24,000 bases of DNA from Paenibacillus cellulosilyticus (GTDB lineage Bacteria; Bacillota; Bacilli; Paenibacillales; Paenibacillaceae), in contig NZ_QGTQ01000016.1 in the NCBI RefSeq assembly GCF_003182255.1, forward strand, positions 87,836 to 111,835, given 5' to 3'. Positions 5,738 through 23,474 of this stretch are shown piece by piece. Position 1 is the first letter of the stretch. Every line of letters starts with the position of its first letter. The translations under genes were made by a program, and so were the position numbers. Under the pieces are notes generated by a model. It ran no database searches. It was not told the DNA's origin and saw only the letters and a list, made by a program, of their open reading frames with translations.

Positions 5738-6376
5738 TCATAGCGGCGGCGTTCGGTGCTGAACGTAACGCGCATAGAAGCGACGCCACTCGTGACGATG
5801 CTTATAGCCCAGCAGCAGCACGCTAATGAGCCAGAACCATCGGATCGCATTCGAATAATTGGCTGCAATCAAGTAAACGCCGAGAAGCACCATCCCCAGC
5901 ACCACTTGCACGCCATCCGTCTCGGACGAATGGAACCCCGGCCAGCTGCGGCTGATCAAACGGACGATCACGAGCAACAGCGCTAGAATGATCGCATAGG
6001 CGAGCGATGCAGCGAACGCGGTCAGCGCACTCCAGACACCGAAGGTGACCGCAATTGCCTTCCCACCCTTCCACCTCAGGAAGGGCGAGAACATATGGCC
6101 GAGGAGCGCGGCAGCGGATGGAAGCAGCAAGCTGCTGCTATCTGTGGCGATGGCGCCAGTGTGCAAAAGCAGCAGGATCGGCACATACCCTTTTGCCCAA
6201 TCGAGCACGATTCCCGATATCCCGTACCAGCGACCTGCCGTCCTCCACAAATTCATCGCTCCAGGGTTTCCGTCTCCCTGCTGTTGTAAATCGTATCGAG
6301 CCAGCCGCCCGAGCCAATAAGAGAACATGAGCGAACCGGATAGAAACGACAGCAGCGTCCACAGGAGCAGCATCAT
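5738..6376 (-). CDS. PlsY-family (glycerol-3-phosphate acyltransferase-like) integral membrane acyltransferase
   Basis: Polytopic membrane protein with a PlsY-like motif GDGNPGAMNLWR (compare GSGNPGATN) and AKG/KGGKA motifs. I place the start at the ATGATG at 6376/6373, which has RBS GGAGGGAGGAG. It overlaps the upstream stop (ATGA), so the ORF-track start 6418 looks too long. Confidence 0.75.
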   Translation of the reverse strand: MMLLLWTLLSFLSGSLMFSYWLGRLARYDLQQQGDGNPGAMNLWRTAGRWYGISGIVLDWAKGYVPILLLLHTGAIATDSSSLLLPSAAALLGHMFSPFLRWKGGKAIAVTFGVWSALTAFAASLAYAIILALLLVIVRLISRSWPGFHSSETDGVQVVLGMVLLGVYLIAANYSNAIRWFWLISVLLLGYKHRHEWRRFYARYVQHRTPPL

Positions 6377-9623: not shown

Positions 9624-11570
9624 CTAACGGAACATTCCTCTCCGGTGCAGCACAAGCGCGACACCTAGAGCAGCAACGACGAGAACAATGCCGCCAGCGC
9701 TGAACCACAGCGCTTCGGCCTCGCCTTCTGATGTTTCTTGATCGTCCGTGTCTTCCATCTGTGCAATCGGTGGTGATGATAACGTAGTTTCTTCGGTCTT
9801 CTCCACAGCTGCCGGTTTCGCCTCAGACGTTGTCTCACTCACCACGGCCTCCGAATCATCGCCTCCGATGCCCGACACCTTATTGCCGTCAACAACTAGC
9901 TTATAATCGACGACCGTCCCGCTCCAGAAATGCAGCTTCAGCAGCACCTCGCCGTCTTTCACTTGATCGAAAAATTCCTTGTTCAGCGTAATATAATTGT
10001 GGGCTGGATCAGGCTCGAATGACTTGCCGAATTGCTTGTACGGCGTCCAATCGTCTGGTCCTGCATTTCCACCTGCTGCATAAACCGCCTCCATCGTTGC
10101 CAAGTTGTCTCCATTAAAGGTCGTCGGAATGATGAACATCGCTCTCGTCGCCTCTACGCTTCGCACTTGCGGCGTGTTGTACTGGATGACATGGAAGCTC
10201 CATTGCGCCCCTGCTGAGAACGTGCACGTCAACACCGCATTGTCGCCCAGCTTGTCCGTCAGCAGCGATTGCAGCAGCCCTGCAGTCAGCGTCAGTTGGT
10301 CGCCATCGAGCTTATAGTCGGTGCCTGCTGTCAGCACACGATCACCAACTCGAATCTCGGTAAGCGTATTGCCGTTCATGTTCATTGGCATGGAGACATC
10401 CTTCACCGGATCGTGCTGCTTCAAGTAGATCGAGTCCGAGAGCGCGTTGGACGAACGGCTCTGAAGCCCTGCATGCATCACTTCATAAAAATCGGGGTTC
10501 TTCCAAGTAAAGCTGCTGCGATCAAAATGCTGGCCGTTATCCCACAGCATAAGCGTCAGCTGCCGCTGCTTCGCGTAATACGTTAAGTATTCAAAGTATT
10601 TCAGAATCTCGCCATGTTCGATCGTATCGACCGACGTATCGAAGCCAAGCAAGCCGAATTCGCCAACGACGACCGGAATGCCCTTCTCAACGAACGTATG
10701 ATAAGCCCTGTCGAACGAGTGCTCCACATCGGCGCGTGCCGTCTCATCGAAGGTTGTGGAACCGCCCATATTCACGCTAAACGGATAATAGCCGTAATAA
10801 TGGATCGTCGCGATAAGATTCGGATCGTTCATCTTGGTCATCGTCTTGTACAACTCATCTAGTCTCGCTTGCGAATGGTTGGCCGTAATCGACGGGATCA
10901 CTAGCGGGCGAAGCTTGTTCTTCCCGCCAGCATGACGCACGATGTTGAAGAACGATTGGTTGAGTTCGTCCAGCATCGTGAAGTATTCCGGTGTATCTTT
11001 ATTCCAATCATCCGAGAACCTCGGCTCATTGATGCTTTCGAACATCAACTTGTCCGGGTAATCCCGGAAATAAGCCGAGATCTGCTTCCAAACCGCATTG
11101 AATCGATTGAGTACCCCATCATGATCGGTTGTCATGTTGAATACCCAGTTGGAGTCGTGATGGAGGTTGATCATGACATACAGACCCGCATCAAGCGACC
11201 AGTCGATAACCTCTTGGATACGCTTCATGAACGTCTCGTCCAGCTTGTAGTCCGGCTCACTGCCGATTCGCCCTTCCCATGTAATCGGAATACGAATGCT
11301 GTGGTAGCCCTGCGCAGCGATCGCTTCTATAAGCTCCTTCGTAACGACGGGATTGCCCCAGGCCGTCTCCGAACCGGGCGCATCGAACGTATTCGCCAAG
11401 TTCCAGCCAGGCTGCATCGAGGCGACGTACTGCTGCATTTTAGTGCGGGATGCTGGATCATTCTGAGCTGCTTCCACTCTTGAGGGTATCGATAACGCAC
11501 AGAGACTGACAAGAAGGCTAACCACCAATGTAACCGCTGCCATTTTTCTAGATACGTTCGTCAATGCCAT
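9624..11570 (-). CDS. Glycoside hydrolase family 5 endoglucanase (cellulase) with C-terminal Ig-like/binding modules and a C-terminal membrane anchor
   Basis: Signal peptide (AAVTLVVSLLVSLCALSIPSRVEA). GH5 motifs IRIPITWEGR, NLHHD, the acid/base FESINEP and the nucleophile VVGEFG. Roughly 250 aa of beta-rich modules follow, then an acidic Ser/Thr/Glu linker, then a TM segment plus basic tail (GGIVLVVAALGVALVLHRRGMFR). RBS GGAGGAG. Confidence 0.9.
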   Translation of the reverse strand: MALTNVSRKMAAVTLVVSLLVSLCALSIPSRVEAAQNDPASRTKMQQYVASMQPGWNLANTFDAPGSETAWGNPVVTKELIEAIAAQGYHSIRIPITWEGRIGSEPDYKLDETFMKRIQEVIDWSLDAGLYVMINLHHDSNWVFNMTTDHDGVLNRFNAVWKQISAYFRDYPDKLMFESINEPRFSDDWNKDTPEYFTMLDELNQSFFNIVRHAGGKNKLRPLVIPSITANHSQARLDELYKTMTKMNDPNLIATIHYYGYYPFSVNMGGSTTFDETARADVEHSFDRAYHTFVEKGIPVVVGEFGLLGFDTSVDTIEHGEILKYFEYLTYYAKQRQLTLMLWDNGQHFDRSSFTWKNPDFYEVMHAGLQSRSSNALSDSIYLKQHDPVKDVSMPMNMNGNTLTEIRVGDRVLTAGTDYKLDGDQLTLTAGLLQSLLTDKLGDNAVLTCTFSAGAQWSFHVIQYNTPQVRSVEATRAMFIIPTTFNGDNLATMEAVYAAGGNAGPDDWTPYKQFGKSFEPDPAHNYITLNKEFFDQVKDGEVLLKLHFWSGTVVDYKLVVDGNKVSGIGGDDSEAVVSETTSEAKPAAVEKTEETTLSSPPIAQMEDTDDQETSEGEAEALWFSAGGIVLVVAALGVALVLHRRGMFR

Positions 11571-11786
11571 CCCTCTACTCCTCCATAACCTTCTCCGTCT
11601 GGGAGTTGCCTATCATCCATATTTTATATGAATAATCGCCAATTAGGAAATGAAGTTTAATCGATTCTGCACAAAATACTAGCCAACAAATTTGAATGGG
11701 TGATGTAAATCCGATTAGGAGGGTAATCAAAGCTATACAGCGAATAAACCAGAAGATGGAAGAACAAGCGCTAGGAGGACTCTCCA

Positions 11787-12284
11787 ATGATCGAACTGCT
11801 GCAGCAGCAATATGATTGGGTCAAATCTGCTAGAAACAATCTATTCGCTTTTCTCGAAGAGATACCGCCTCTCCTTCTGCATCAAGCACTCCCCTCGTTC
11901 GGCAGAGGGACGATTCTTAAGACGCATATTCATGTCGCCGACAGCTATCGTCTCTGGCTTGGATCGTTCGCATTCCGGCTGCCGCCAGACCATCATCAGG
12001 ACATATCCATCGATAAAATCAAACGTGCGGATGTCCCGTTCGTCCGCAATCTGTTCGCTGAAGTTGACGATACGGTGCAGCGATTTCTGAACGCGACTAA
12101 CGACTGGTCTGAACCGATCGTCCATCCGGTGTTCTGGCAGGACGAGCCGCATGTTGCGTCGCCACTGCATCTTTTTACGCATGTAGTTACACATGAATTC
12201 CATCACAAAGGGCAAATCGTCTCGATGGCCCGACAGCTTGGTTATCCCCCGCCAGCGGATGATCGCTTGGGCGGAATTTTCTGA
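11787..12284 (+). CDS. DinB-family (DinB/YfiT-like four-helix bundle) protein
   Basis: 165-aa ORF with RBS TAGGAGGAC. Has the DinB-type His triad context (THIHVADSY ... HVVTHEFHHKGQI). Confidence 0.85.
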   Translation: MIELLQQQYDWVKSARNNLFAFLEEIPPLLLHQALPSFGRGTILKTHIHVADSYRLWLGSFAFRLPPDHHQDISIDKIKRADVPFVRNLFAEVDDTVQRFLNATNDWSEPIVHPVFWQDEPHVASPLHLFTHVVTHEFHHKGQIVSMARQLGYPPPADDRLGGIF

Positions 12285-12721
12285 TGATCCTACATCCACA
12301 CGAAGCTGTTATCGAAATTGCAGATAACGGTTTTATTTTTACCGACGATAAATCTCGACTTCATCTCTATGAAGTGTGCGGACTGCTCAGGCAGTCACAC
12401 TGGGCGAAAGATCGCCCGATTGAGGTTATTGCCCGTACGATTGAAACCTCGCTCTGCGTAATGGTCTATCACAAGGGACGACAGATCGGATTCGCAAGAG
12501 TTGTCACGGATTATGCGGTCTACAGCTTAATCCTCGACGTCATAGTCGACGAACAGTATCGAGGCCATGGGCTTGGGAAGAAGCTCATTACGTTTATTAA
12601 TACTCATCCCCGTTTGAAGGACACGGCCAAGGTGCTCTGGACCAAATATGCCAAGCAGCTCTATGAACAGTGCGGGTTTCAGGAAGAGGAATGCTATACC
12701 TTCATGTTCAATCGGCCGTGA
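12284..12721 (+). CDS. GNAT-family N-acetyltransferase
   Basis: 145-aa ORF whose start overlaps the DinB stop (TGATG). Acetyl-CoA-binding motif VDEQYRGHGLGKKLI and C-terminal LYEQCGF. Confidence 0.9.
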   Translation: MILHPHEAVIEIADNGFIFTDDKSRLHLYEVCGLLRQSHWAKDRPIEVIARTIETSLCVMVYHKGRQIGFARVVTDYAVYSLILDVIVDEQYRGHGLGKKLITFINTHPRLKDTAKVLWTKYAKQLYEQCGFQEEECYTFMFNRP

Positions 12722-12750
12722 AGCAGGTGCATTAAACTTAGGAGGACATA

Positions 12751-13326
12751 ATGACAACTTATGTATATATGGTGCGGCATGGCCAATCCCCGCTGACCGA
12801 AGGAACTGAACGGACAAGAGGACTTACGGATAAAGGAATGCTGGATGCCTCTCGCATTACTGAGTTGCTCAAGTCCGAAGGGATTGAGGTGTTCGTCTCC
12901 AGCCCCTATCAACGTGCGATTCTAACAATTCAAGAGCTCGCGCATGATGCCGGACAAGAAATTATCGTCTACGAAAATCTAAAAGAGCAGCACTTCTCCT
13001 CGACGGAAATCCGAATGCCCGATGTTGAGCTGCTTCCCCTGCTCCAGCAGTGCTATGCAGATCCCACGTTCGCAAGACCCGATGGCGAGTCCAATGCCGA
13101 TTGCCAACAGCGCGCTGTCACAGTTCTGCAAGAGCTATTAACGACCTACCAAGGAAGAAAAATAGTGATTGGCACGCATGGCGCCGTCATGGCCTTAATG
13201 ATGGGCTACTATGATCGTAAATATGACTTGGCATTCATGCTGAACACTTCGAAACCGGATGTTTATCGCATGAAATTTGAGGGACATACATTATTAAGCG
13301 TAAAAAGAATATGGGGCGCTAAATAA
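12751..13326 (+). CDS. Histidine phosphatase family protein (phosphoglycerate mutase-like)
   Basis: 191-aa ORF with RBS TAGGAGGAC. Catalytic RHG motif (YMVRHGQSP) and distal GTHG motif. Confidence 0.9.
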   Translation: MTTYVYMVRHGQSPLTEGTERTRGLTDKGMLDASRITELLKSEGIEVFVSSPYQRAILTIQELAHDAGQEIIVYENLKEQHFSSTEIRMPDVELLPLLQQCYADPTFARPDGESNADCQQRAVTVLQELLTTYQGRKIVIGTHGAVMALMMGYYDRKYDLAFMLNTSKPDVYRMKFEGHTLLSVKRIWGAK

Positions 13327-13341
13327 CAACAATGCTTAATG

Positions 13342-13381
13342 AGGCGTGAACACCTGCTAATGCCAGTGTCCACGCCTTTTC
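13342..13381 (+). terminator. Terminator between convergent genes (plus-strand U-tract; possibly bidirectional)
   Basis: Stem AGGCGTG(AACAC) at 13342-13353 pairs with (GTGTC)CACGCCT at 13366-13377, followed by TTTT. Lies between the stops at 13326 (+) and 13389 (-). Confidence 0.6.
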
Positions 13382-13388
13382 CGAATGA

Positions 13389-14192
13389 CTACTGAGGGAG
13401 GACAAGCCCCCACACCTCTTGCAAAGCCTCAATGAACAAGCGATCCAGCCGTTCATCGATAGTCGCATCCGCCGACTTCAATGCATGTGCACGCTTCTCC
13501 AATGAGTCCAGCTCCTTGGCGATATACGCGTGAATCGCCTCTTGACGCGGCTCGTAGTCGAGCTCTTCGCCTGCCTTCTTCCGCTCGAGCAGCTGCTGCA
13601 CCTCGTTCCACAGCGCATCTTCTCTTGGGAGCAGCCGCTCGACCAGCTCATCGAACTTTATCGGCGGCATCTCGCCGAACTGCTCAATCCATTCGCAGGC
13701 GAGAATCGGACGCAGAACGTAGAAGTACTTCTTGATCTTCACCTGATCGCCTTGCAGGTACGTCCGGAAGTTGCCGCGCGCCATATGCAAGTAATGGAAC
13801 ATGCATGCCTTCGGCGAGAAAGCTTGCGATGACAGCGCACGAAGCTGGTCTGCCGTGCGGTATGGCTCGGCGTAACGGATTGGCGATTGCAGCCATTCAA
13901 GCAGCGGCGGATTCGATTTGCGATACAAGCCAAGTGCCTTCCGCAAATCCCAACCGCTAATGTCGAGCTGATCGCTGATCGGACGCTCGATGACGTCGCG
14001 TTTGTCCTGAATCGATAAATACCACTCCGGCCGCCGAACGTAGAGGAACCTCACATCATAGTCGCTGTCCTGCGACGGGAAGCCCCATGCGCGGCTGCCG
14101 GATTCGCATGCATATAGGATGCGAACCTGCTCCTCCTGCTCGATCCGCTTCAATTGTTCCGTTATCTCATTCCGTATCGCGTCTACTGTCAT
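13389..14192 (-). CDS. Pol-beta-superfamily nucleotidyltransferase (PF10127/RlaP-like, YcgL-like)
   Basis: 267-aa ORF with the NTase motif ACESGSRAWGFPSQDSDYDVRFLY (G-S ... D-x-D) and the family-typical helical C-terminal region. RBS GGAGGGAC. The start overlaps the last 26 nt of the upstream TROVE gene. Confidence 0.85.
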   Translation of the reverse strand: MTVDAIRNEITEQLKRIEQEEQVRILYACESGSRAWGFPSQDSDYDVRFLYVRRPEWYLSIQDKRDVIERPISDQLDISGWDLRKALGLYRKSNPPLLEWLQSPIRYAEPYRTADQLRALSSQAFSPKACMFHYLHMARGNFRTYLQGDQVKIKKYFYVLRPILACEWIEQFGEMPPIKFDELVERLLPREDALWNEVQQLLERKKAGEELDYEPRQEAIHAYIAKELDSLEKRAHALKSADATIDERLDRLFIEALQEVWGLVLPQ

Positions 14193-15708
14193 CCCGTGTC
14201 CCTCCTGCCTCTAGGTCGATCGCTTCGATCCGCTCCACCATCGAGCCATAACCTTTAGTCGCCTGAGCGATATAACGGAGAACCGTATCGCTCCAGCCGT
14301 AAATATAGAACGTGTTCGCATCCTGCGGCGGCACCATCGCGCTGCGATACGGCGCAATGTCGATCACGAACGCTTTGACATTCGGGTTCACCTTCGCCCG
14401 ATACTTCGCCAATGCGTCATAGAATGGACTACCGCTGTTCTGCTGCTCGTCGGTAATAATGATGATCTGGTCCACGCGCTGCCGCTCCGCGAGCAGCTTC
14501 CGCACAGGCGCTCCTGTATCGGTGCCGCCTCGTGCACGTATCCATTCCGCCTGCGTTAAAATGCTTTCATGACGTGACGGCCTCGCGTCCTCTACAGCCG
14601 TATCGAACAGCCAAAACAGCGAGTTCCCTGCGGTTTTCTTATATAACGCAAGCGCGAATACAGAGCCGATCTGCAAATATTGTCCTTCCATCGAGCCCGA
14701 TATATCGAGAAAAATAGCCGTTCGGCCCTCCAAGTCAGGCAAATTCTTGAACGTATACTCGACCGCGCTGCTCAATGCGCTGCGAACAGCATCGTTCCTA
14801 ACTTGCCGATAGGCGGTCGCGAAGCGGAACGGCAAAATGCGCGACTTCGTCAGCGCACGCGGATCCGTCAGTCGATCAACAACACGGTCGAGGCAGTAGC
14901 GATCCTGCAGCACACCCGCACGATCCAGCGCATTCAAGTTGCGAAGCAGCGCGAAGGTCGGCATTTGCTCCATGAGAACTTCCCATACGAGCTTCGTCGG
15001 CTTGATGGCACCCGTCACGATCTCGTGCGGCAGCCGGCCTGCTTCGATCCAGTAGATCTGCTCGATTTCCGTTGTCGCCTTCTTCAAATACTCCAGCGCC
15101 TCTACCTGCGGAATAAGCGACAAATTCGCCTCTTGGCCGCGCAAATAGCGGAACAATGCCTGCTGCTTCAGGTCGGCTGGCTTCGGATGCGCCGTCGCAA
15201 TTGCGTCGCCAAGGCTGAAGCCCCGGCCGCGTCCGTTGTATTTGATCGCCCAATACTCGGAGACGCCTGCAAGGAATCGATTGACCTGGCGCTTCACCGC
15301 ACGACCGCCCTGTCCCCGTCCCATCCCGCTCACAATCGTCAGGAAGTCCGATAGGTCCGAAGGGATTCGCACCACTTGCATGAAAATTTTGCTGAACAAA
15401 TCCGGGCGACATACCGACAGCACCGCCAAGCCGAACAACGGCTGCAGCCGCATGTGCCCTTCATTGCGTGCGTAGACCAGCGCCTTCGCCATAAACTGCG
15501 GATTATGCTCTGCCATCTCGCAGTGCAACGCCTCTGCTTCTTGCAGCAGCTCCTGCTGGTCAGCGTAGAACGTATTGCCCATCGTATTCGTTACGAGCGT
15601 CTGCACGTATTGCTCTTCTGCCGAGCGGATGTAGGCTGGATAGCTCTCACGGTTCGTCGTGGTCGGATTCATTCTCATATTGGCGAACAATTTCTTAGCG
15701 ATGCTCAT
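14167..15708 (-). CDS. rsr: Ro60 orthologue (Rsr): TROVE domain plus C-terminal vWA domain
   Basis: 513-aa ORF. The N-terminal region is typical of the TROVE HEAT-repeat ring (YVQTLVTNTMGNTFYADQQELL, ALVYARNEGHMRLQPLFGLAVL). The C-terminal vWA has a MIDAS motif (AIFLDISGSMEG ... GGTDTG ... IIIITDEQ). RBS AAGGGGG. Confidence 0.9.
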   Translation of the reverse strand: MSIAKKLFANMRMNPTTTNRESYPAYIRSAEEQYVQTLVTNTMGNTFYADQQELLQEAEALHCEMAEHNPQFMAKALVYARNEGHMRLQPLFGLAVLSVCRPDLFSKIFMQVVRIPSDLSDFLTIVSGMGRGQGGRAVKRQVNRFLAGVSEYWAIKYNGRGRGFSLGDAIATAHPKPADLKQQALFRYLRGQEANLSLIPQVEALEYLKKATTEIEQIYWIEAGRLPHEIVTGAIKPTKLVWEVLMEQMPTFALLRNLNALDRAGVLQDRYCLDRVVDRLTDPRALTKSRILPFRFATAYRQVRNDAVRSALSSAVEYTFKNLPDLEGRTAIFLDISGSMEGQYLQIGSVFALALYKKTAGNSLFWLFDTAVEDARPSRHESILTQAEWIRARGGTDTGAPVRKLLAERQRVDQIIIITDEQQNSGSPFYDALAKYRAKVNPNVKAFVIDIAPYRSAMVPPQDANTFYIYGWSDTVLRYIAQATKGYGSMVERIEAIDLEAGGTRDDSRRDTE

Positions 15709-15749
15709 CGGTTTAACCCCCTTTTATATACGAACGTCGATTGTTATGA

Positions 15750-15850
15750 AAAAAAGAAAGAGCGAGGAAATGTGCGAGAAGGCGGCGCGGAGCACTCGCC
15801 CGCAATAAACGTTGGATAGAAGTAGCCCTCTCTAGCGCCTCGCTCTATGC
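15750..15850 (-). ncRNA. Y-RNA-like structured RNA 2 (YrlB-like; no tRNA module), ending in a U-tract
   Basis: Read on the minus strand. Basal stem AUAGAGCGAGG (complement of 15838-15848) pairs with CCUCGCUCUUU (complement of 15757-15767). Then an asymmetric internal loop CGCUA / GCACAUUU, then a second stem GAGAGGGC / GCCUUCUC (8 bp, one G-U). The 3' end is CUUUCUUUUUUUC. The architecture and loop sequences are paralogous to the adjacent RNA at 15861-16001. Confidence 0.55.
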
Positions 15851-15860
15851 TGCTTATGTA

Positions 15861-16001
15861 ACAATCGTTGAGGAAAATGGCGGAAAGGCACAAGCTGCTC
15901 TACCAACTGAGCTACTCTGCCTTGCGGCAAAGGTTGGACTCGAACCAACGACAAGCCGATCTACAGTCGAAGTAACCCTTCCTAGCGCCTCAACGATCTG
16001 T
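15861..16001 (-). ncRNA. YrlA-like Y RNA with a circularly permuted tRNA-like domain
   Basis: Read on the minus strand. A 10-bp perfect basal stem AUCGUUGAGG (complement of 15988-15997) pairs with CCUCAACGAU (complement of 15864-15873). Inside are the internal loop CGCUA / GCCAUUUU and the stem GGAAGG / CCUUUCC. The apical module is T arm GUUGG-UUCGAGU-CCAAC (15933-15949), a 7-bp acceptor-like stem CUUUGCC / GGCAGAG closed by a GCAA tetraloop (15915-15932), UA, and D arm GCUC-AGUUGGUA-GAGC (15897-15912). It lies directly upstream of rsr on the same strand. Confidence 0.7.
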
Positions 16002-16120
16002 GCGGCCTCCGCTTTACAGCCTCGGCTTCACAACCTGATTTTCACCGAAATCCACCCCTGCGAACAGGGCAAAAGTATGGCGAAGAATAAAAAGTTTCCA
16101 TTTTCCCCAGTTGACGGGCT

Positions 16121-16129
16121 TGTTACAAT
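16121..16129 (+). promoter_or_regulatory. Candidate extended -10 promoter for the WYL operon
   Basis: TGTTACAAT (TGn + TACAAT) lies 46 nt upstream of the GTG at 16175. There is no good -35 at 17-nt spacing; a TTGACG is present only 7 nt upstream. It overlaps the dyad TTGT-N-ACAA (16120-16128). Confidence 0.3.
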
Positions 16130-16174
16130 GGAGCCATTACCCTTGTGATCGGACAAGATGAGGAGGAATGGACA

Positions 16175-17500
16175 GTGGCTCGAGAAAGCTTTGACAAAGA
16201 GGTGCAGCTGCTGCGGCTGCTCGCGCTCGCAGGCGGTGCATATAACCGGCAGCAGTTCGCGGCGCGGCTGGGCATCTCCGTACATACCTACGACAAAACG
16301 ATGCGCTACCTGAAGGAGATGCAAAGCTCGCTCAAGCAGCCGCTGTCCCCCGAGCAGGAGACCGAACTGTCAGACGGGCTTCGCTACAACTACTACGAAT
16401 CGGCCGACCCGCTGCTGTTATTCCTCTTCCGCGCCAAGTCGCTGAAGGAGTCGGAGAGCGTCCGGCTGTCCACGATATTAACTGTGCTGCAGGATCAGTC
16501 ACTGACCGCAAAAGAGCTGCTCGACTGCTGCAGCGAGACGATGTCTGCGGACTATCCAAGCCCTGACGAGAAGACGATCCGTGGCGATCTCAAATATCTT
16601 GAGGAGGTCGGCGTTATCGTCCGTACCTCAGACAGCCGCCCTTTCCGCTACACCGCAGCTATCGGACTGATTAATGAGCTGTCGGATGACGAGCTGATTG
16701 ATCTCTATGATTACGTCGATGTGATGGCGAATACGCAGGTTCCGTCTGTACAAGGCTACTTGCTTCGCGACACGCTGAAGAAGGCTTTGCGCAAGCGCGG
16801 CTTCGATCCATCGGCAGCCGAGACGCATCTGTACAAGTACCACTACCACTCGCGCATTCTTGACGAGGCGCATCTACATACGATTCACCGTGCGATTCGG
16901 GAGCGGCGACGGATTGATTTTGTATACCATGCACCTCGGAAGGGGAAAAACTACGCAGCTAAGAACACGAATCCACTGTTCGAACGCGAGGAGCAAAGTC
17001 AAACGCAGCCCCTCCTCCCGCTTCGTGTTATCTACGATCATCAATATGGACGCTGGTACCTCATCGGCCATACGCAGCGGAACGCGATTGCGAAATTCCG
17101 GATGGAAGGCATTACGCAGATCGAGGAAGGCGAGGTGGTTTCGGAGGAAGAGTTCAATCGGCACTTGAACACGGTTGAGCGTCAGATGGAGCGAAGCTGG
17201 GTTGTGGATACGCTGCGAACGATTAAGGTTGTGGCGAGATTTTTCAATCCGGAGCGACCTGGATCGAACTTCATTCGGGAACGTGTGGAGGCGCAGGGCC
17301 AATGGGGTTCGATCACGGAGGAATCCGACGAGTCTTTCCTCTATACGATTATGGTCAATGGCATCTACGAGATTAAGCCGTGGCTGCGGAGCTTCGGTTC
17401 CAGCTGTGAGGTGCTTGAGCCCGCATGGCTGCGCAAGGAGTTCATTGCGGAGTGGAAGGAGATTCAGGCCCATTATGAACCCGTTCGAAAAAATATTTAA
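16175..17500 (+). CDS. WYL-domain transcriptional regulator (HTH - second wHTH-like region - WYL - C-terminal WCX-like domain), PafB/PafC-like
   Basis: N-terminal HTH (YNRQQFAARLGISVHTYDKTMRYLKEM) and a second wHTH-like segment (LTAKELLDCC ... IRGDLKYLEEVGVIVRT). WYL signature LRVIYDHQYGRWYLIGHTQRNAIAKFRMEGI, plus a C-terminal extension domain. I prefer the GTG start at 16175 (AGGAGG at 16161-16166, 8-nt spacing). The ORF-track GTG at 16145 is an in-frame alternative. Confidence 0.85.
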   Translation: MARESFDKEVQLLRLLALAGGAYNRQQFAARLGISVHTYDKTMRYLKEMQSSLKQPLSPEQETELSDGLRYNYYESADPLLLFLFRAKSLKESESVRLSTILTVLQDQSLTAKELLDCCSETMSADYPSPDEKTIRGDLKYLEEVGVIVRTSDSRPFRYTAAIGLINELSDDELIDLYDYVDVMANTQVPSVQGYLLRDTLKKALRKRGFDPSAAETHLYKYHYHSRILDEAHLHTIHRAIRERRRIDFVYHAPRKGKNYAAKNTNPLFEREEQSQTQPLLPLRVIYDHQYGRWYLIGHTQRNAIAKFRMEGITQIEEGEVVSEEEFNRHLNTVERQMERSWVVDTLRTIKVVARFFNPERPGSNFIRERVEAQGQWGSITEESDESFLYTIMVNGIYEIKPWLRSFGSSCEVLEPAWLRKEFIAEWKEIQAHYEPVRKNI

Positions 17501-18275
17501 CTACCAAATGCTGTCGCGGCTCGACGAGTCGAACGCATTCGCCTTGACTACGCAGGAGCGCGCATGGCTGAAGATGCTGCTGTCTCACCAATCAGCGGAA
17601 AATGCCTTTACCTCGGATACGCTCGGCAAGCTGCGCGGACTGCTGGCGGACGAAGCCGCAGCCGACATTCGCGACATCATTATCGAGAAAGCGAAGAGCC
17701 GGGAGAAGCATGTGTACCACCCGATGCTGCGCTCGCTCCGCCGCATCATTGCGCAAGGCTTCGGCAGCTATATTACGTATCGGCTCAAGCATGGCGGCAT
17801 GCGGAATCAATTCGGCCTTCCGCTGAAGCTCGAATACAGCATGGTGAAACGGGAGTGGTATCTGCTCTGGTACAGCCCGCGAAGCCGCATGCTGATGGCG
17901 ACGAAGCTGGACAATCTCATCGCAGCTGACGCGGTCGAGCTGCACGCCGATCGTGCAGCATCGCTTCACCGTCGTGCGTCCGAGCTGCTCCACAATCGCA
18001 AGCAGCAAGCGGTTATTGAAGTCGTTCGCATGTATAACGAAGAGCTGTCGCGCATCCTTTATGCGTTCTCGTGCTTTGACAAGACGGTCAGCTATGACGA
18101 ACAGGCCGATCTGTATCATATCCACGTCACATATCCTGCCGACGAAGGCGAATATTTGCTGTCCAAAATCCGTTTTCTCGGCCTCCGAGTACGCGTTGCA
18201 GAAGGCAACTACCTGAAGCGGCGGATGTGGGAGTCCTCATCGAAGGCCATTGCGCGGTATGGAATAGGGGAATAA
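17475..18275 (+). CDS. WYL-domain protein without a recognisable N-terminal HTH (partner subunit, PafC-like)
   Basis: The in-frame ATG at 17475 (MNPFEKIFNYQ) overlaps the upstream gene's end by 26 nt. WYL signature ITYRLKHGGMRNQFGLPLKLEYSMVKREWYLLWYSPRS, plus a C-terminal WCX-like region (YHIHVTYPADEGEYLLSKIRFLGLRVRV). The first 100 codons of the ORF-track frame (from 17175) run inside the upstream gene and look non-coding (Arg/Ser-rich). Confidence 0.8.
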   Translation: MNPFEKIFNYQMLSRLDESNAFALTTQERAWLKMLLSHQSAENAFTSDTLGKLRGLLADEAAADIRDIIIEKAKSREKHVYHPMLRSLRRIIAQGFGSYITYRLKHGGMRNQFGLPLKLEYSMVKREWYLLWYSPRSRMLMATKLDNLIAADAVELHADRAASLHRRASELLHNRKQQAVIEVVRMYNEELSRILYAFSCFDKTVSYDEQADLYHIHVTYPADEGEYLLSKIRFLGLRVRVAEGNYLKRRMWESSSKAIARYGIGE

Positions 18276-18636: not shown

Positions 18637-19596
18637 TCACACGCCCTCCCCTTCTTCCTCTCGCTGTTCCTCCGACGGCCCAATCGTAACGCGCCTCCCA
18701 TCGAACGACAGCACCGCCTTGCCTCCCACATTCATCGACTCCAAATACTCCTTCGGAATTTGCAGCCTGCCAATATGGTCGATAACGACATACTGCTCGT
18801 GCCGAGAGCCGAAGCCTACAGCAGCTTGCGCGATTGCAGCGCCTGCCGATTCCATTTCCCCTGCCTCGCCCACACCATGCACAACGCCTGCCAGAGAACC
18901 CGTCTCTCCGCCCTCGCGCCTAATCCACTCCGTACTCGTTAACCCATCGCGTATCGCAACGACACGATCGACGCGATCGGCGACCGATAGATCATGCGTA
19001 ACGATGACAATCGTGACGCCCATCTCGGCATTCAGCCTGCGGAAAATCTCAAAAATCTGTTCGCCCGTCGCGCTGTCGACCGAGCCGGTCGGCTCGTCGG
19101 CCAGCAGCAGCTGCGGACGCCCTGCGAGCGCGATGGCGATCGCAACGCGCTGCTGTTCGCCGCCGCTCAGCTGCGTGAGGCGGCTGCCCATTCGATGCTC
19201 CAGCCCAACGGCGCTGAGCAGCTGCTTTGCAAATGCGCGATCCACTTTGCCTTGGATGAGCATGGGTAGTTCCACATTTTGCAGCGCGGTTAAATATGGA
19301 ATGAGATTACGTGCGTTATTTTGCCAAATAAATCCGACAGTCTCCCGCTTATAGGCAATAAGCTGCTCTTTCGTCATCTTAAGCAGGTTCCACTTCCCTA
19401 CGTGCGCCTGCCCGGCAGAAGGGCGGTCGAGGCCGCCCAATATATTCAGCAGCGTCGACTTTCCGCTCCCGCTGTTGCCGATGATCGCCATCATTTCGCC
19501 CTGCCTGACGTTTAAGTTCAGCCCTTGCAGCGCGACGACCTCGACGTCGTCGGTTTTATAGATTTTGACCATTCCCTCGCATCGAATCATCTCCAT
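18637..19596 (-). CDS. ABC transporter ATP-binding protein (MacB/LolD-type) with a C-terminal extension of about 90 aa
   Basis: Walker A GNSGSGKST, Q-loop, signature LSGGEQQR, Walker B LLLADEPT, H-loop VTHD. The C-terminal tail contains an AbrB/SpoVT-like pattern (IDHIGRLQIPKEYLESMNVGGKAVLSFDGRRVTIGP). RBS GGATGGAGG. Confidence 0.9.
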   Translation of the reverse strand: MEMIRCEGMVKIYKTDDVEVVALQGLNLNVRQGEMMAIIGNSGSGKSTLLNILGGLDRPSAGQAHVGKWNLLKMTKEQLIAYKRETVGFIWQNNARNLIPYLTALQNVELPMLIQGKVDRAFAKQLLSAVGLEHRMGSRLTQLSGGEQQRVAIAIALAGRPQLLLADEPTGSVDSATGEQIFEIFRRLNAEMGVTIVIVTHDLSVADRVDRVVAIRDGLTSTEWIRREGGETGSLAGVVHGVGEAGEMESAGAAIAQAAVGFGSRHEQYVVIDHIGRLQIPKEYLESMNVGGKAVLSFDGRRVTIGPSEEQREEEGEGV

Positions 19597-19611
19597 GCAA
19601 CAACCTCCATC

Positions 19612-22401
19612 CTACCGTTCCTCGCCAAGCTTCACGGCCTGTGTAATGCGCAGGCTGCGCAGCTGCCAGACGAGCAGGCAAGCTCCTGCTGCCAGCATAA
19701 CGCCAGTTGCAGCATACAGCTTTAATGCATCTTCCGCCTCGAACACAATGCGGAACGGCGGCACCTGTCTCTCGCTGTCGACGCCTCCGCCTTGCAGGAA
19801 TGGCAGGAACAAACGGCTTGCCGCTTGACCTAGCCCGATGCCTGCTGCCAGTGACAGCCCCGTCGTAAACAACTGCTCAAGCAGCAGCATACCGGTCAAT
19901 TGACCACGTGACAGCCCTGTCGCACGCAGAATACCGAGCTGAACGACTCTTCGCGATAACGAGAACAGCCAGAAAATCAAATACCCGAGCAGCGAGATTA
20001 GCAGCGTTATGATAAACCCAAGGCTCAGGATGCCAAATAGTCCTCCTTGTGCCGGATGGCTGCGCCGATCGACCAGTTCACTGCGCGCATCACTAGCATC
20101 GGTAACCGTAACGCCTCGATCCGCCAACGTATCCAGCACCGGCCCGAGCTTCGCGCCATCGTCCATATTCAGCCACACCTCGTACGGCGTTTTCTCAATC
20201 TGCTGATAAATATAGTCGAGGTTCGCGATGAAGTAAGGCGATTCATCCTCATACAAGCTCGGCCAGTACGGCACGATTCCAACGACAACGAAGTCCACCG
20301 CGGTGTTATCGTAGCCGACTCGCAGACTAATCGGATCCCCCTCCTTCAGCCCATGCTTACGTGCAAAAGCCTGCGATACGAGCACCGCCTGTTCCGCCGT
20401 GCCAAGCGCATCCAAATAATAATACGGATGAATCGCATACAGGTCATTGCGAAACCATGCCGCCTGCGCGAACTCGGCATTGTCGATGCCGACGAGTTGA
20501 CCGCTGCCAGCTGACTTGCCGCTAATCTCGACCTTGCCCGTCGCCTTATAGACGCGTGCCGCCGCTGTTACGCCATCCAACTGACGGAACGACTCGAACG
20601 ACGGCTCGGAATAATAAATCCGATTCTCATCATTCTCGTCCTGCACGCCTTCCCATGCCGTCTTCACCACGACATCAGCTCCGTATTGATACTGCGTACG
20701 GTCAGAGGCGTTAAGATCCATTGTTCGAGCGGCAGAGGAATTGTAAACGCCAAGCCCAATCGTCAGGATGAGCAGCAGCATGATCGGATAGAACGAAACG
20801 GCAGAGCGTGACAGCTGCGTAACAGTCAAGTAGATGGTTACCGGCATCCGATGCCTCATCATGGCGTTCCAGTAACGCAGCAGCAGCGGGAATAGGCGAA
20901 GCCCCAACAGGCCGGCTGCGAATATAAACAGCGCCGGTATGACGAAGATGACAGGCTGTATGCTCGCTTCACTATCAGCTCCCGACACCGACGACAGTTG
21001 GCCGGCATGAAGTGCATACCATCCTGCTCCTGCCAACCCAAGCAGCACCACATCGAGATACAACCGCTGCCACATCGGTCTGCCCGCTCCCCGCGAGCGC
21101 TGTTGAGCATGTTGAACTACTGATGATTCAGCGTACCTGCGAATCGGAGCAGTAGAGGCAATGGCAGCGAGTACCGCTGCCATCCCGCCGAGCAGCCACG
21201 CGGAGCGGCTGATACCAACCGGAATCGACTTCCGTCCAACAAAAGATAAGAAACCGCTGGAGGAGCCGATCACTTTGGCCATGAACCAAGCCAAGCATGC
21301 GCCGATTGCCAGCGCCGCTAAGCCGAGAATGGCGGCCTCGATCGCATACAAAGCAATGATTTGCCGCGGACTCGCCCCACGGCTATGCAGCACAGCAATG
21401 ACACCGCGCTGACGCTCTAAAGCCTGCTGCGCGTTAAGCGTAATGAAATAGAGCGCCATCGTCAGCACAGGTGCCGCCAGCGCGAACAGCATCGCCAGCA
21501 GCAGGACGCTCTGCTGCTGGAAATCGCGCAGCATCGACTCAAACGTCAGATTCATTTTCGTATCGGCCAGCATGCCGTGCAGCGTCACTTCCAGTCGCTG
21601 CAGCTCGTCAATAAGCGGCGACAAGTCCTGCATACGGATATTGTCTAGATTGAACGCATAGAACCATCCAGCAGAATCTGGTACGAGATTACTGTCACCT
21701 AATAGCGTACCCGTCATCGTGTCATTGCTGACCCATAGTGTGCTAGCCAGCTTGTCCTTACCGTCGATTGCCCAGCTTAGGTTCGTCTCGTCGCGCAGCT
21801 TATATGAGCCGGAGATGCGAACTGTCAGTCGTTGAACCTTGCCGTCCGCATTCTTGGCATCATAGTAGAACGTATCGCCGACATTCCAGTCATAACGTTC
21901 CATCGTCTCGCCCAAAACAAGCGCCTCTATCACGCCGTCCATCTTTCCTTCTGCGGGCAGCTTGCCGTCCACAAGTTCTGCTCCTTCAGGTATGCCGGCT
22001 TGCGTCGCCAGCTCCATCCGAACGAGTCGGTTCGCTGCGCCACTGCCTTGACTTACGGGACGAACCGTGGAGGCTGGCAAGCTGACCCGGCTGGAATAAC
22101 CCTCCACCGGGAAGCCCATACGCTTCGGCAGCGTCTCCCGGACCCAGCGGTCGGCCTCCGCGAGACCTTCGAGATCGGCCTCGTCATTGCCGTCGGACTG
22201 GTATTTCAAATAGAGCGATGCGGCGGGAAGCCCCTGCGTCTGCTCTTCAAGCGACTTTGCTACAACGCGTTTGAGTGTTCCATCCGCATACATCGGGATG
22301 CTCATGGCGAATGCAACGGCGACCGTCAGGCCTAATAGCGTGGTCAGGGTGAACCAACGGTTTTGCCGCATTTTGAGCAGTAGAAACAGAAGAATGCGCA
22401 T
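19612..22401 (-). CDS. Fused double-FtsX/MacB-type ABC permease (929 aa)
   Basis: By eye there are about 10 TM segments arranged as TM1, a large ectodomain (about aa 40-295), three TMs, two linker TMs, one TM, a second ectodomain (about aa 556-800), then three TMs. This amounts to two MacB-like halves in one chain. The start overlaps the adaptor stop (TAATG). Confidence 0.9.
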   Translation of the reverse strand: MRILLFLLLKMRQNRWFTLTTLLGLTVAVAFAMSIPMYADGTLKRVVAKSLEEQTQGLPAASLYLKYQSDGNDEADLEGLAEADRWVRETLPKRMGFPVEGYSSRVSLPASTVRPVSQGSGAANRLVRMELATQAGIPEGAELVDGKLPAEGKMDGVIEALVLGETMERYDWNVGDTFYYDAKNADGKVQRLTVRISGSYKLRDETNLSWAIDGKDKLASTLWVSNDTMTGTLLGDSNLVPDSAGWFYAFNLDNIRMQDLSPLIDELQRLEVTLHGMLADTKMNLTFESMLRDFQQQSVLLLAMLFALAAPVLTMALYFITLNAQQALERQRGVIAVLHSRGASPRQIIALYAIEAAILGLAALAIGACLAWFMAKVIGSSSGFLSFVGRKSIPVGISRSAWLLGGMAAVLAAIASTAPIRRYAESSVVQHAQQRSRGAGRPMWQRLYLDVVLLGLAGAGWYALHAGQLSSVSGADSEASIQPVIFVIPALFIFAAGLLGLRLFPLLLRYWNAMMRHRMPVTIYLTVTQLSRSAVSFYPIMLLLILTIGLGVYNSSAARTMDLNASDRTQYQYGADVVVKTAWEGVQDENDENRIYYSEPSFESFRQLDGVTAAARVYKATGKVEISGKSAGSGQLVGIDNAEFAQAAWFRNDLYAIHPYYYLDALGTAEQAVLVSQAFARKHGLKEGDPISLRVGYDNTAVDFVVVGIVPYWPSLYEDESPYFIANLDYIYQQIEKTPYEVWLNMDDGAKLGPVLDTLADRGVTVTDASDARSELVDRRSHPAQGGLFGILSLGFIITLLISLLGYLIFWLFSLSRRVVQLGILRATGLSRGQLTGMLLLEQLFTTGLSLAAGIGLGQAASRLFLPFLQGGGVDSERQVPPFRIVFEAEDALKLYAATGVMLAAGACLLVWQLRSLRITQAVKLGEER

Positions 22402-23474
22402 TATCGGCTCACAACCTTCTGGCCTTCCTCCAGCCCCTTAATAATCTCCGCATCCGTCGAAGTCTGAATGCCGACCTCTACGTCCACCTCGCCCTTGCTG
22501 CCATCAGCGTTCGAGACGAGCACATAATTTCGACTGTTCTGCGTTCGAAGGGCAGCAAGCGGAATCGATAATGCATTCGTCCTGCGCTCCACAATAACGG
22601 ATGCTGACAGTGGCGTGCCGCGCCCTGCACCTTCCGGCAGCTTATCGACGTCGATCAGCGTATAGGAATCAAGCGATTCCTCATCGTCGTCTTGGTCCGT
22701 GCTGATGGGCAGCCTACGGACCTTGCCTTTGTAATCACCTGCCGCATTGATGCTGACGACGGTTTCCATGCCCGGTGCAATGCTATCCAGATCGCTTGTA
22801 TTAAATTCTACGGCGACAACGAGCGAGGATAGGTCGGCGATTGTGCCGATCGTCTCATAAGCTTGGGTCAAATCACCCTTCTCCGCCGTGAAGCTGACAA
22901 TCATACCATCGTAAGGGGCGTACAGCTTCGAACCGGTCAAATCCTGCTGCAGCTCTGCGAGCTCATCCTTCAATAAACCATAATCGAGCTCTTGCTTGCG
23001 CAGCTGTGTGCTGCTCTCGGCTTCGTCCCCATCCAGGCCGCGCAAAGCATCCTTCAAATCCAGCTCCGCCTTCGCAATCTCGATCTGCTTGCGCTGAATC
23101 TGACTCTCGGTGTCGCCTGTATCAAGCGCGGCCAACAGCTGTCCCTTCTTCACCTTGTCGCCAGCTTTAACATAGACGTTCGTGATACGCTGGTTATCGA
23201 GCTCGAACAACAGATTGTCCTCCTGCTCCGACAACAGCTTCCCAGCCCCTGACGCCGTTAGCTCCAGCGTCTGTCGCGTCACCGGATACTCGATCTTCGT
23301 TGCGATCTTAGGCACTCGAATTTGTGGCAGCGACTCCTTCTCCTCTTCCTGCGGCAGCAGCGTGCAGCCCGCCGACAACAGCGATAAGCATAGCACGCTG
23401 ATCAATAGTCGGAATGCAGGCGCGCCGCGCTTACGCCGATTCGATTGTGCCGTCCGCCATTCGATAGACAACAT
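22401..23474 (-). CDS. Efflux periplasmic-adaptor (MacA/HlyD/YknX-like) lipoprotein
   Basis: Lipobox LLSAGC after a basic/hydrophobic signal. Biotinyl-lipoyl-like segments (VKAGDKVKKGQLLA ... LYAPYDGMIV), a coiled-coil hairpin (QIQRKQIEIAKAELDLKDALR ... LKDELAELQQDL), and a beta-barrel C-terminus. RBS GGGAGG. Confidence 0.85.
   Translation of the reverse strand: MLSIEWRTAQSNRRKRGAPAFRLLISVLCLSLLSAGCTLLPQEEEKESLPQIRVPKIATKIEYPVTRQTLELTASGAGKLLSEQEDNLLFELDNQRITNVYVKAGDKVKKGQLLAALDTGDTESQIQRKQIEIAKAELDLKDALRGLDGDEAESSTQLRKQELDYGLLKDELAELQQDLTGSKLYAPYDGMIVSFTAEKGDLTQAYETIGTIADLSSLVVAVEFNTSDLDSIAPGMETVVSINAAGDYKGKVRRLPISTDQDDDEESLDSYTLIDVDKLPEGAGRGTPLSASVIVERRTNALSIPLAALRTQNSRNYVLVSNADGSKGEVDVEVGIQTSTDAEIIKGLEEGQKVVSR

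Follow-up and report, generated by a model that had tools for sequence, protein, structure and literature searches.

A divergent WYL gene pair and a conserved promoter box suggest probable WYL control of RNA-damage genes in bacteria without RtcR

In enterobacteria, the rsr-yrlBA-rtcBA genes are under the control of RtcR, a sigma54 activator with CARF and AAA+ domains. In M. smegmatis, YrlA and YrlB are encoded upstream of rsr and are processed out of one precursor (PMC4201824). The translational-stress regulon of Anabaena, which includes a tRNA L-array and rtcB, is marked by two tandem 9-nt direct repeats that lie 2-3 nt apart (PMC8421152). The nucleotidyltransferase RlaP, which adds one or two NMPs onto RNA 3'-OH ends, is encoded in RNA repair operons, modular cassettes in which it is shuffled with Ro/Y RNA scaffolds and with ligases (RtcB, Pnkp/Hen1) (PMC12776372). 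Two WYL-domain activators respond to DNA damage: PafBC is a mycobacterial heterodimer, and Caulobacter DriD is a homodimer that senses ssDNA, binds an inverted repeat and controls DNA-damage genes. In promoters that have no -35 element, the DriD site extends over the -35 position, and its distance to the -10 element is constant (PMC13004042). Burroughs and Aravind group papers later than 2016 attribute the regulation of RNA repair pathways, in a general way, to transcription factors of the WYL and CARF kinds, and do not describe the WYL pair and promoter box reported here (PMC9503650).

The window analyzed here is a 24,000-nucleotide stretch of the Paenibacillus cellulosilyticus genome. Its minus strand carries, in this order, a YrlA-like RNA, a second Y-like RNA, rsr (TROVE and vWA domains) and rlaP (PF10127); divergent from these, the plus strand carries WYL1 (predicted HTH-wHTH-WYL-WCX) and then WYL2 (WYL-WCX, with no recognizable HTH). 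This layout had been proposed in the original prediction, and every part of it was found in its predicted position. The predicted absence of RtcB and RtcR from the window also held and extends beyond it: no gene for RtcB, RtcA or RtcR was found in the window or in the 10 kb on each side (approximately 44 kb in all). The intergenic region has no match to a sigma54 -24/-12 site, and there are no tRNA genes in the window. At a distance of 1.1 kb from rlaP there is a gene of the DinB family; the DinB, GNAT and phosphatase gene neighbors do not carry the box described below and are not conserved as neighbors in related loci.

The product of rsr (14167..15708, minus strand) is a bacterial Ro60 orthologue with Pfam matches to TROVE (E 4e-20) and vWA_Ro60 (E 4e-8), and its score of 97.9 bits with the NCBIfam Rsr model is far under the equivalog cut-off of 900. 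The last gene of the operon, rlaP (13389..14192, minus strand), encodes a Pol-beta-superfamily nucleotidyltransferase with a full-length match to Pfam RlaP (E 8e-101; 337 bits versus a gathering cut-off of 23), and the GS...DxD catalytic motif is readable in the translation (ACESGSRAWGFPSQDSDYDV). The ATG of rlaP, 7 nt behind the ribosome-binding site GGAGGG, is located 26 nt inside rsr, as predicted. A fixed stoichiometry of the two proteins had been deduced from this overlap, which is a weak argument because the 26-nt overlap is not conserved: in other loci rsr and rlaP are separated by gaps of 3-100 nt or by intervening genes. No RNA ligase gene is present beside rlaP in the window or in the 10 kb on each side, and the association of this rlaP with a ligase exists at the regulon level only, through a box that is common to rtcB.

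Directly 5' of rsr are two RNAs with a long terminal stem and a bulged Ro-binding helix, for which Rsr binding is predicted. The YrlA-like RNA (15860..15998, minus strand) combines the Ro-binding stem with a tRNA-like T-arm, D-arm and variable hairpin. It aligns with the full length of Rfam family RF02553 (YrlA; 15864-15994(-), model positions 1-114, E 7e-10), at 51.3 bits versus a gathering score of 69 bits, and from its sequence we treat it as a divergent member of that family. With a family-specific covariance model built from 15 orthologous loci it scores 160 bits. Among these orthologues, compensatory changes are found in 10 of the 36 pairs. The tRNA-like module inside the stem has an invariant T-arm (GGUUCGAnUCC) and an invariant D-arm (AGCUCAGuuGGUAGAGC), and the hairpin between the two arms covaries, with double changes in 5 of 7 pairs; the sequence of the Ro-binding stem is invariant, whereas compensatory changes are seen in the outer stem. 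The second, YrlB-like RNA (15754..15848, minus strand) has a bulged Ro-binding stem and a short insert in place of the tRNA-like domain. Its covariance model match (42.5 bits, filters off) covers the stem parts only, and it shares GAGGCGCUAGnGAGGGyUACUUC with the YrlA-like RNA. Extra Y-like RNAs equivalent to this one are present in most rsr loci. The anticipated association of Rsr with Y RNA is strict, the YrlA-like RNA being present in 33 of 33 rsr loci and in none of the rsr-less loci.

The WYL1 protein (16175..17500, plus strand) is a 441 amino acid transcription factor with Pfam WYL (E 3e-9) and WCX (E 1.6e-13) domains. The start codon that suits it best, GTG at 16175 (MARESFDKE), is in agreement with homologues and with the public gene call, also of 441 amino acids. 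Two HTH regions, each under the Pfam threshold, recur across WYL1 homologues, and the second is modeled as a wHTH at low confidence (AF2 model, pLDDT 62). The WYL2 gene (17475..18275, plus strand), which overlaps WYL1 by 26 nt, encodes a 266 amino acid protein with zero Pfam or NCBIfam matches. Its N-terminal helical region-WYL-WCX architecture is based on the PADLOC WYL HMM (residues 78-255, E 4e-7), on hhalign with the C-terminal half of WYL1 (E 1.5e-3) and on Foldseek matches of an AF2 model (pLDDT 78.5) to DriD (5e-9) and PafBC (2e-8), with CapW and BrxR also matched. The N-terminal 80 amino acids of WYL2 are conserved, helical and of low confidence in the model, with no HTH match. Foldseek matches to the low-confidence WYL1 model at E < 1e-3 are limited to DriD and PafBC. 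The closest predicted folds of both WYL proteins are the activators DriD and PafBC, and neither protein matches PafB or PafC significantly in sequence. The pair is also less even than PafBC, with two HTH-like regions in WYL1 and none that is recognizable in WYL2. Such a distribution of HTH regions fits a direct-repeat binding site.

The WYL1-WYL2 pair is kept in 79 of 80 species loci, fixed and translationally coupled. Repair genes are divergent from the pair in 73 of the 79, so that the expected linkage of a WYL pair with RNA-repair genes stood, and its supposed specificity for Ro and Y RNA did not. The commonest cassette partner is RlaP (66/79), followed by RtcB (44), the optional Rsr with Y RNA (33), Hen1 (22) and Pnkp (16); 55 of the 79 loci have a ligase (RtcB or Pnkp) within the cassette, and tRNA arrays are present in some related cassettes. 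In Paenibacillus, Cohnella, Brevibacillus, Gorillibacterium and Neobacillus alike, pair and cassette remain linked, with the cassette content shuffled. RlaP-containing RNA repair operons were reportedly described by Burroughs and Aravind in 2016. We found no description of RNA repair under the control of a WYL pair and box in the searchable literature, which did not cover the text of that paper.

The intergenic region shared by the WYL pair and the cassette carries a conserved cis-element, in line with the proposed regulation. This RNA-repair box (TCGCCATACTTTTGCCCTGTTCG; 16061..16083, minus strand) is 23 bp long, contains a 9-bp direct repeat that occurs twice at a period of 11 bp, and is the presumed WYL1/WYL2 site. 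Its PWM score in the window is 55.1 bits versus -22 for the next-best site. PWM sites number 120 in 92 sources and have 13 invariant or near-invariant positions. In the 81 strand-checked sources every box is on the cassette strand, upstream of repair sub-operons, and the five intact loci that lack repair genes have no box. In an unbiased test that set out from Rsr, metagenomic relatives of it with at least 71% identity and available upstream DNA have the box in 15 of 15 cases and an adjacent WYL pair in nine.

A stand-alone rtcB gene is present in P. cellulosilyticus approximately 500 kb away and is preceded by the same box with the same spacing (30.8 bits versus -22.6 for the next best in 21 kb); the stand-alone rtcB of P. 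terricola likewise carries the box. The module had been regarded as self-contained, and it is not, because the box extends to this unlinked rtcB. All identifiable box-bearing genes act on RNA (RtcB, Pnkp/Hen1, RlaP, Rsr/Y RNA and tRNA arrays), and no DNA-repair gene with a box was found. The best explanation is that the Paenibacillaceae have a dispersed regulon for RNA damage (tRNA/RNA repair), of which the window contains the regulator locus and a single operon.

Exactly 17 nt past the box is the sequence GAnnAT (GAAAAT in the window; 16038..16043, minus strand), a candidate -10 element of the operon promoter in which the A, A and T are conserved at 100%, 98% and 100% among 116 unique sites. 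In these 116 sites the box takes the place expected of a -35 element, with constant spacing to a -10 element that, like the transcription start, is predicted. A simple sigma70 scan of the region found no promoter. On the plus strand, the predicted promoter region of the WYL operon (16095..16129) is formed by the block TTTCCATTTTCCCC (16095-16108) and an extended -10 element TGTTACAAT (16121-16129), which are conserved in approximately 70 aligned upstream regions and are retained in loci without box and cassette.

We consider it somewhat more probable than otherwise that a WYL1/WYL2 heteromer binds the box, senses damaged nucleic acid and activates a dispersed RNA-repair regulon. The proteins encoded by the overlapping WYL1 and WYL2 genes would form a hetero-oligomer, in which the two HTH domains of WYL1 would read the two 9-bp direct repeats. 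The promoter would be activator dependent, because the box replaces the -35 element, 17 bp upstream of a weak -10 element (GAnnAT), as at DriD-controlled promoters. The complex would be turned on when its WYL domains bind nucleic acid fragments released by damage, whereupon RNA polymerase would transcribe yrlA-yrlB-rsr-rlaP and the unlinked boxed rtcB. The precursor would be processed to give the two Y RNAs, which would be loaded onto the Ro60 ring; 3' ends that have been trimmed would regain one or two nucleotides through RlaP, and the breaks would be resealed by RtcB.

Cleaved tRNA or other RNA is the favored ligand, with ssDNA as the alternative. We tentatively suggest that WYL1/WYL2 is the Gram-positive counterpart of RtcR, a heteromer that responds not to ssDNA but to damaged RNA, for example the ends of cleaved tRNAs, and activates its dispersed regulon through the tandem-repeat box at the -35 position. 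If so, the Ro-Y RNA RNP, RlaP, RtcB and Pnkp/Hen1 would belong to the regulon, joined in some species by arrays of spare tRNAs matching the anticodons typically attacked by anticodon nucleases. It is also possible that the pair is an ssDNA-binding DNA-damage sensor like PafBC and DriD, its closest folds in the models, and that RNA repair is one arm of a DNA-damage response. To our knowledge, every WYL transcription factor characterized so far binds ssDNA, not RNA. The Salmonella rsr-rtcBA genes are induced in the SOS response (PMC9879122), and a DinB-family gene is near rlaP; however, that gene and its GNAT and phosphatase neighbors are unboxed and not conserved in position, and the box is confined, as far as its genes are identifiable, to those acting on RNA. 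This alternative touches the ligand only and leaves the rest of the model intact.

Somewhat more doubtful is repression by WYL1/WYL2, through a tandem-repeat operator that would cover a -10 element (CATACT) and the start site, with de-repression by the ligand. CATACT/AATACT is invariant within the box, and TGGAAA is found 16-19 nt upstream of CATACT in the WYL-proximal copies. Repression has been proposed for the Anabaena tRNA-array/rtcB repeats, which lie over the -10 element and start site of strong promoters (PMC8421152), and CapW and BrxR, themselves WYL regulators, reportedly act as repressors (PMC11662680). However, TGGAAA is absent from the internal and distal boxes and from the rtcB box, and it persists in loci without a box and therefore belongs to the WYL promoter. 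A repressor would also leave the invariant GAnnAT 17 nt downstream unexplained, and the only matches of the WYL1 model at E < 1e-3 are activators.

It is unlikely that the box is read by something else, be it an alternative sigma factor or a regulator encoded elsewhere, and that the WYL pair is simply a neighbor of the cassettes and regulates itself or another target. Three box-bearing cassettes (L089, L092 and L093) have no WYL pair within 6-7 kb, the rtcB box of P. cellulosilyticus has no adjacent pair, and five WYL pairs have no box nearby; these cases make the linkage of pair and box strong rather than obligatory and leave room for a different reader of the box. Against this, 71 of 93 regex-defined boxes sit 100-115 nt from the WYL1 start codon, pair and cassette have stayed linked across five genera despite the shuffling, and unlinked boxes are the expectation for a trans-acting regulon. 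The anti-phage role first suggested, whether as defense or as abortive infection with the Ro RNP and nucleotidyltransferase as effectors, is very improbable: WYL regulators are common in defense islands, both WYL proteins match PADLOC WYL models and anticodon-nuclease conflicts involve phages, but Rsr and RlaP have no PADLOC match, the partners are repair enzymes and spare tRNAs that restore function rather than kill, and no toxin-like effector is seen in the cassettes. Support for such a role does not go beyond the PADLOC WYL matches.

Several known systems come close to that of Paenibacillus. Its cassettes resemble the RlaP repair operons in their modular content, although in the window RlaP is paired with Rsr/Y RNA only and the ligase is elsewhere. 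As in the Anabaena regulon, related Cohnella-type loci hold tRNA arrays and RtcB, together with the box, in one cassette; the Anabaena repeat is a different one (TGTWNWWNW...), its regulator is not identified, it has no Ro/Y RNA, and the window has no tRNA array. With PafBC the system has in common two adjacent paralogous WYL-WCX genes, a presumed heteromer, a fold-level similarity in the models and a dispersed regulon with a promoter motif replacing the normal -35 element. It differs in the lack of significant sequence similarity, in HTH distribution (PafB and PafC have one each), in its motif, which is a different one and is located at -35 and not at -26, in a regulon of RNA-repair rather than DNA-repair genes and in having no pup-proteasome context. 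DriD is the best structural match in the models for both WYL proteins, and the box has the same geometry as DriD sites relative to its predicted -10 element, in contrast to the single protein, inverted repeat, ssDNA ligand and DNA-damage genes of DriD. The closest functional relative would be the RtcR system. Both unite Ro60/Rsr, a tRNA-like YrlA, a second Y RNA and RtcB in one regulon, both have a divergent regulator with a domain of a type that senses nucleic-acid-derived ligands, and the Paenibacillus system likewise seems to be silent unless induced. Unlike the enterobacterial operon, the Paenibacillus locus has the Y RNAs upstream of rsr, as in M. smegmatis, the P. cellulosilyticus ligase gene is unlinked, and RtcR, CARF, the sigma54 site and RtcA are missing, their place being taken by the WYL pair and a predicted sigma-A-type promoter box. 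In function, control of RNA repair by a WYL pair would parallel that by RtcR.

The locus has the anatomy that was originally predicted for it in every item: two Y RNAs, rsr, rlaP, WYL1 and WYL2. The window corresponds to about 390-414 kb of CP054612.1. On the minus strand, rsr (15708-14167) encodes a TROVE plus vWA_Ro60 protein, and rlaP (14192-13389; PF10127, E 8e-101) has its own ribosome-binding site. On the plus strand, WYL1 (16175-17500) encodes a protein of 441 amino acids with Pfam WYL and WCX domains, the GTG at 16175 matching both the homologues and the public gene call as the start codon, and WYL2 (17475-18275) encodes 266 amino acids. In P. cellulosilyticus the overlap is exactly 26 nt for both rsr/rlaP (14167-14192) and WYL1/WYL2 (17475-17500); across the family a WYL1/WYL2 overlap of about 23-26 nt is kept and the rsr/rlaP overlap is not. 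RtcB and RtcR are missing from the window as predicted, and neither these, RtcA nor a sigma54 site is found within it or in the 10 kb beyond either edge. There are no tRNA genes in the window, and hence no tRNA array.

In the 62 nt that separate rlaP from the convergent histidine-phosphatase gene there is a GC-rich hairpin, GGCGTGGACA...TGTTCACGCC (13342-13377), which may be a bidirectional terminator; a terminator scan did not call it because it has no T-run. Tail-to-tail with rlaP, the stretch 11787-13326 (+) encodes a DinB-family protein, a GNAT acetyltransferase and the histidine phosphatase. These three were rejected as module members, being kept only in P. terricola and lacking a box. 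The mycobacterial WYL regulator SiwR, which controls DinB-like genes, was considered as a parallel, and we saw no connection between that case and the WYL pair of the window. A GH5 cellulase with CBM_X2 and CBM46 modules (9624-11570, minus) and a MacB-type ABC exporter consisting of ATPase, FtsX permease and membrane-fusion protein (18637-23474, minus) are ordinary neighbours. About 5.6-7.9 kb past the 3' end of the window (locus L082, 2790-5045) lies a gene for a Band_7/SPFH protein with zinc ribbons, followed by one for an unannotated 375-aa protein; there is no box near the Band_7/SPFH gene. SPFH modules have been proposed as scaffolds for RNA repair.

The WYL pair is attached to RNA-repair cassettes in general. 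A profile search with WYL2 homologues gave 80 species-level loci, out of at least 310 matching loci, that span Paenibacillus, Cohnella, Brevibacillus, Gorillibacterium and Neobacillus. In 79 of the 80, WYL1 directly precedes WYL2 and the two genes overlap, the exception being a truncated contig. P. polymyxa, too, has the pair. ORF clustering and Pfam assignments identified the divergent partners as RlaP (66/79), RtcB (44/79), Rsr (33/79), Hen1 (22/79) and Pnkp (16/79), together with DUF6847, an RNaseH-like PF04308 protein and a 534-aa protein of no assigned family. At least one RNA-repair cassette gene is present in 73 of 79 loci and a ligase in 55. The original prediction had linked the pair to a Ro/Y-RNA module; divergent linkage to repair genes stands, but it is RlaP that accompanies the pair most constantly, and Ro/Y RNA is optional. 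The ligase-less rsr-rlaP cassette is common to the window and P. terricola, and Paenibacillus sp. CCS19, the next-closest relative, additionally has Hen1-Pnkp. Five loci (L004, L009, L011, L057 and L073) encode WYL1-WYL2 with neither repair cassette nor box within 8 kb.

Alignment of the regions upstream of WYL1 revealed a 23-bp box, TCG(y)(m)ATACTT(n)CGCC(m)TGTTCG on the cassette strand, composed of two 9-bp direct repeats with an 11-bp period. The window copy, TCGCCATACTTTTGCCCTGTTCG, is at 16083-16061 on the minus strand. A position weight matrix (PWM) finds 120 box sites in 92 sources, with 13 positions invariant or near-invariant; strand was checked in 81 of the sources, and there all sites are on the cassette strand. 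Longer cassettes have an additional box ahead of each sub-operon (YrlA-rsr, RlaP-RtcB, Hen1-Pnkp and some unknown genes), and all five intact loci that have no repair genes also lack the box. The box is followed, at exactly 17 nt, by GAnnAT, in which A, A and T are conserved at 100, 98 and 100%; in the window the predicted -10-like element is GAAAAT (16043-16038, minus), about 40 nt before YrlA. For the WYL operon a separate, conserved extended -10 is predicted, TGTTACAAT (16121-16129, plus), and this element and a TTTCCATTTTCCCC block are conserved even in loci without box or cassette. Their retention in the five loci without a cassette suggests that the targets of those pairs are all unlinked. 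A simple sigma70 promoter scan of 13250-16300 found no site, and the promoter proposals therefore rest on comparative conservation. In P. terricola, the closest relative (L001, about 6490-6700), an insertion of about 100 nt separates the box from the WYL promoter, the distance from box to WYL1 start being 213 nt compared with about 110 nt elsewhere. Covariation of box variants with HTH residues was abandoned because both variants occur within single genomes.

The original prediction regarded the locus as a self-contained module, and this is contradicted by the genome itself. A search with a relative's RtcB located a stand-alone rtcB some 500 kb away from the window, on the 3.84-Mb chromosome that carries both. 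It is preceded, 74 nt before its ATG, by TCGTAATACTTCCACCGTGTTCA, then 17 nt, then GACAAT, and this box is the sole positive PWM score in 21 kb (30.8 bits, next-best -22.6). The same box arrangement precedes rtcB in P. terricola. The common box and spacing indicate that the window operon and rtcB have one promoter design, and the operon is, on this sequence evidence, a predicted part of a dispersed regulon. An approach from Rsr, in which an Rsr profile was searched against metagenome contigs, gave 30 loci. The box precedes YrlA-rsr in all 15 metagenomic Rsr loci with at least 71% identity and upstream DNA, and the WYL pair adjoins nine of these 15; L089, L092 and L093 have complete box-bearing cassettes with no WYL pair within 6-7 kb. 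At 42-66% identity, Rsr relatives lack both the box and the WYL pair. Linkage of box, pair and Rsr is thus strong in this clade and not obligatory, which fits trans-acting control.

Cohnella-type box-bearing cassettes contain 2-14 tRNA genes in an array, along with a further Y-like RNA and a gene for an RNaseH-like protein (PF04308). The arrays are found in L003, L005, L010, L019-L023, L026 and L032 (about 5200-6000, cassette strand) and in L089-L093, and encode tRNAs His-GTG, Gln-TTG, Glu-TTC, Asn-GTT, Lys-TTT, Asp-GTC, Pro, Trp, Ile and Tyr. These anticodons are classic targets of anticodon nucleases. Between rlaP and rtcB, ten loci encode a conserved protein of about 534 amino acids (e.g., L056:2028-3632, minus), which matches no family in Pfam, NCBIfam or PADLOC and is probably an additional RNA-repair component. 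Directly behind distal boxes are genes at L050:9707-11794(-), L067 (about 10833-12956), L017:12952-13629(-) and L052:14733-15056(-), whose products of 695-707, 225 and 107 amino acids have no Pfam match; these are candidate extra regulon members.

At the Rfam gathering threshold nothing in the window is matched, and YrlA surfaces only in E-value mode: the YrlA-like RNA at 15998-15860 (minus) reaches 51.3 bits (E 7e-10) against a gathering score of 69. The second Y-like RNA is shorter (15848-15754, minus); it keeps the bulged Ro-binding stem and has its tRNA-like module replaced. In an alignment of 15 orthologous YrlA regions the T-arm-like and D-arm-like sequences are invariant, and compensatory changes occur in 10 of 36 predicted pairs, chiefly in the inter-arm hairpin and outer stem. 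A family covariance model built from these 15 regions found full-length YrlA immediately before rsr in 33/33 rsr-bearing loci, at 91-165 bits, and none in the rsr-less loci; most rsr loci have one or two extra stem-only Y-like RNAs. The predicted Y RNAs of the window are, on this comparative evidence, real.

Searches of PDB sequences with WYL1 and a WYL2 profile gave chance matches only; a fold search was needed. For WYL1, whose model is weak (pLDDT 62), the sole matches at E < 1e-3 were DriD and PafBC, both activators; for WYL2 (AF2, pLDDT 78.5) DriD and PafBC were the best matches, followed by the repressors CapW and BrxR. WYL2 has no match in Pfam or NCBIfam even at E = 10; its residues 78-255 match the PADLOC WYL model (E 4e-7), and its N-terminal 80 residues are conserved and not assignable to a domain. 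Two regions of WYL1, residues 10-53 and about 106-163, are HTH-like; both are below Pfam cut-offs and recurrent in homologues. Two HTH domains on WYL1 would fit two direct repeats one helical turn apart.

We favor a model, based on the likeness of box geometry to DriD sites, in which the box promoters would be activated by a WYL1/WYL2 complex. The complex would bind the box, would be switched on by nucleic-acid fragments, either RNA or single-stranded DNA, on its WYL domains, and would bring sigma-A RNA polymerase to yrlA-yrlB-rsr-rlaP and rtcB. RlaP extends RNA 3' ends by one or two nucleotides, favoring damaged RNAs, and is required for aminoacylation recovery of the most heavily damaged repaired tRNAs (PMC12776372). 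The Aravind group has put forward, in general terms, CARF and WYL transcription factors as possible sensors of RNA ends and regulators of RNA repair pathways (PMC9503650).

The leading alternative is that the same box mediates repression, acting as an operator over a CATACT -10. There is precedent in the Anabaena tRNA-array/rtcB regulon, where two 9-nt direct repeats lie over the -10 and start site (PMC8421152); however, the TGGAAA upstream is absent from distal box copies, and repression leaves the invariant GAnnAT without explanation. A palindromic operator, CCCTG-CGAA-CAGGG in the window, was rejected since the palindrome is not conserved at other loci. An ECF-type reading of the box (GAAC...CGA, plus strand) was also rejected, as transcription from internal and distal copies would then run antisense to the genes behind them. 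Sigma54 control is dismissed because the intergenic region has no -24/-12 match.

To our knowledge, induction of RNA-repair genes is understood only for the proteobacterial RtcR system, and most Firmicutes, as far as we know, have RtcB, Pnkp/Hen1, RlaP or Ro/Y RNA and lack RtcR. The locus offers a testable candidate regulator (the WYL pair, with two HTH on one subunit), a precise 23-bp site and a defined regulon, making regulation of Gram-positive RNA repair directly testable. If activation by the pair is correct, WYL sensing would reach beyond DNA damage and phage defense to RNA damage, coordination of unlinked repair genes would be explained, and Ro/Y RNA would be functionally tied to RlaP and RtcB in Gram-positive bacteria; spare-tRNA arrays and RNA repair would form one response to anticodon nucleases. 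Ro/Y RNA, RlaP, RtcB and WYL regulators are already known. In the searchable literature on WYL together with RtcB, RlaP, Hen1, Pnkp or Rsr we found no account of the WYL pair of unequal architecture, the 23-bp box, the dispersed regulon or the spare-tRNA arrays in related cassettes, although the survey of Burroughs and Aravind (2016), outside our search, may mention WYL neighbors.

In M. smegmatis, where RtcR does not control the locus, YrlA and YrlB precede rsr and arise by cleavage of a single precursor (PMC4201824); the window has the same order, YrlA-YrlB-rsr. The site bound by DriD overlaps the -35 at a constant distance from the -10 and lies in promoters devoid of a -35 element (PMC13004042); relative to its predicted -10, the box would have this geometry.
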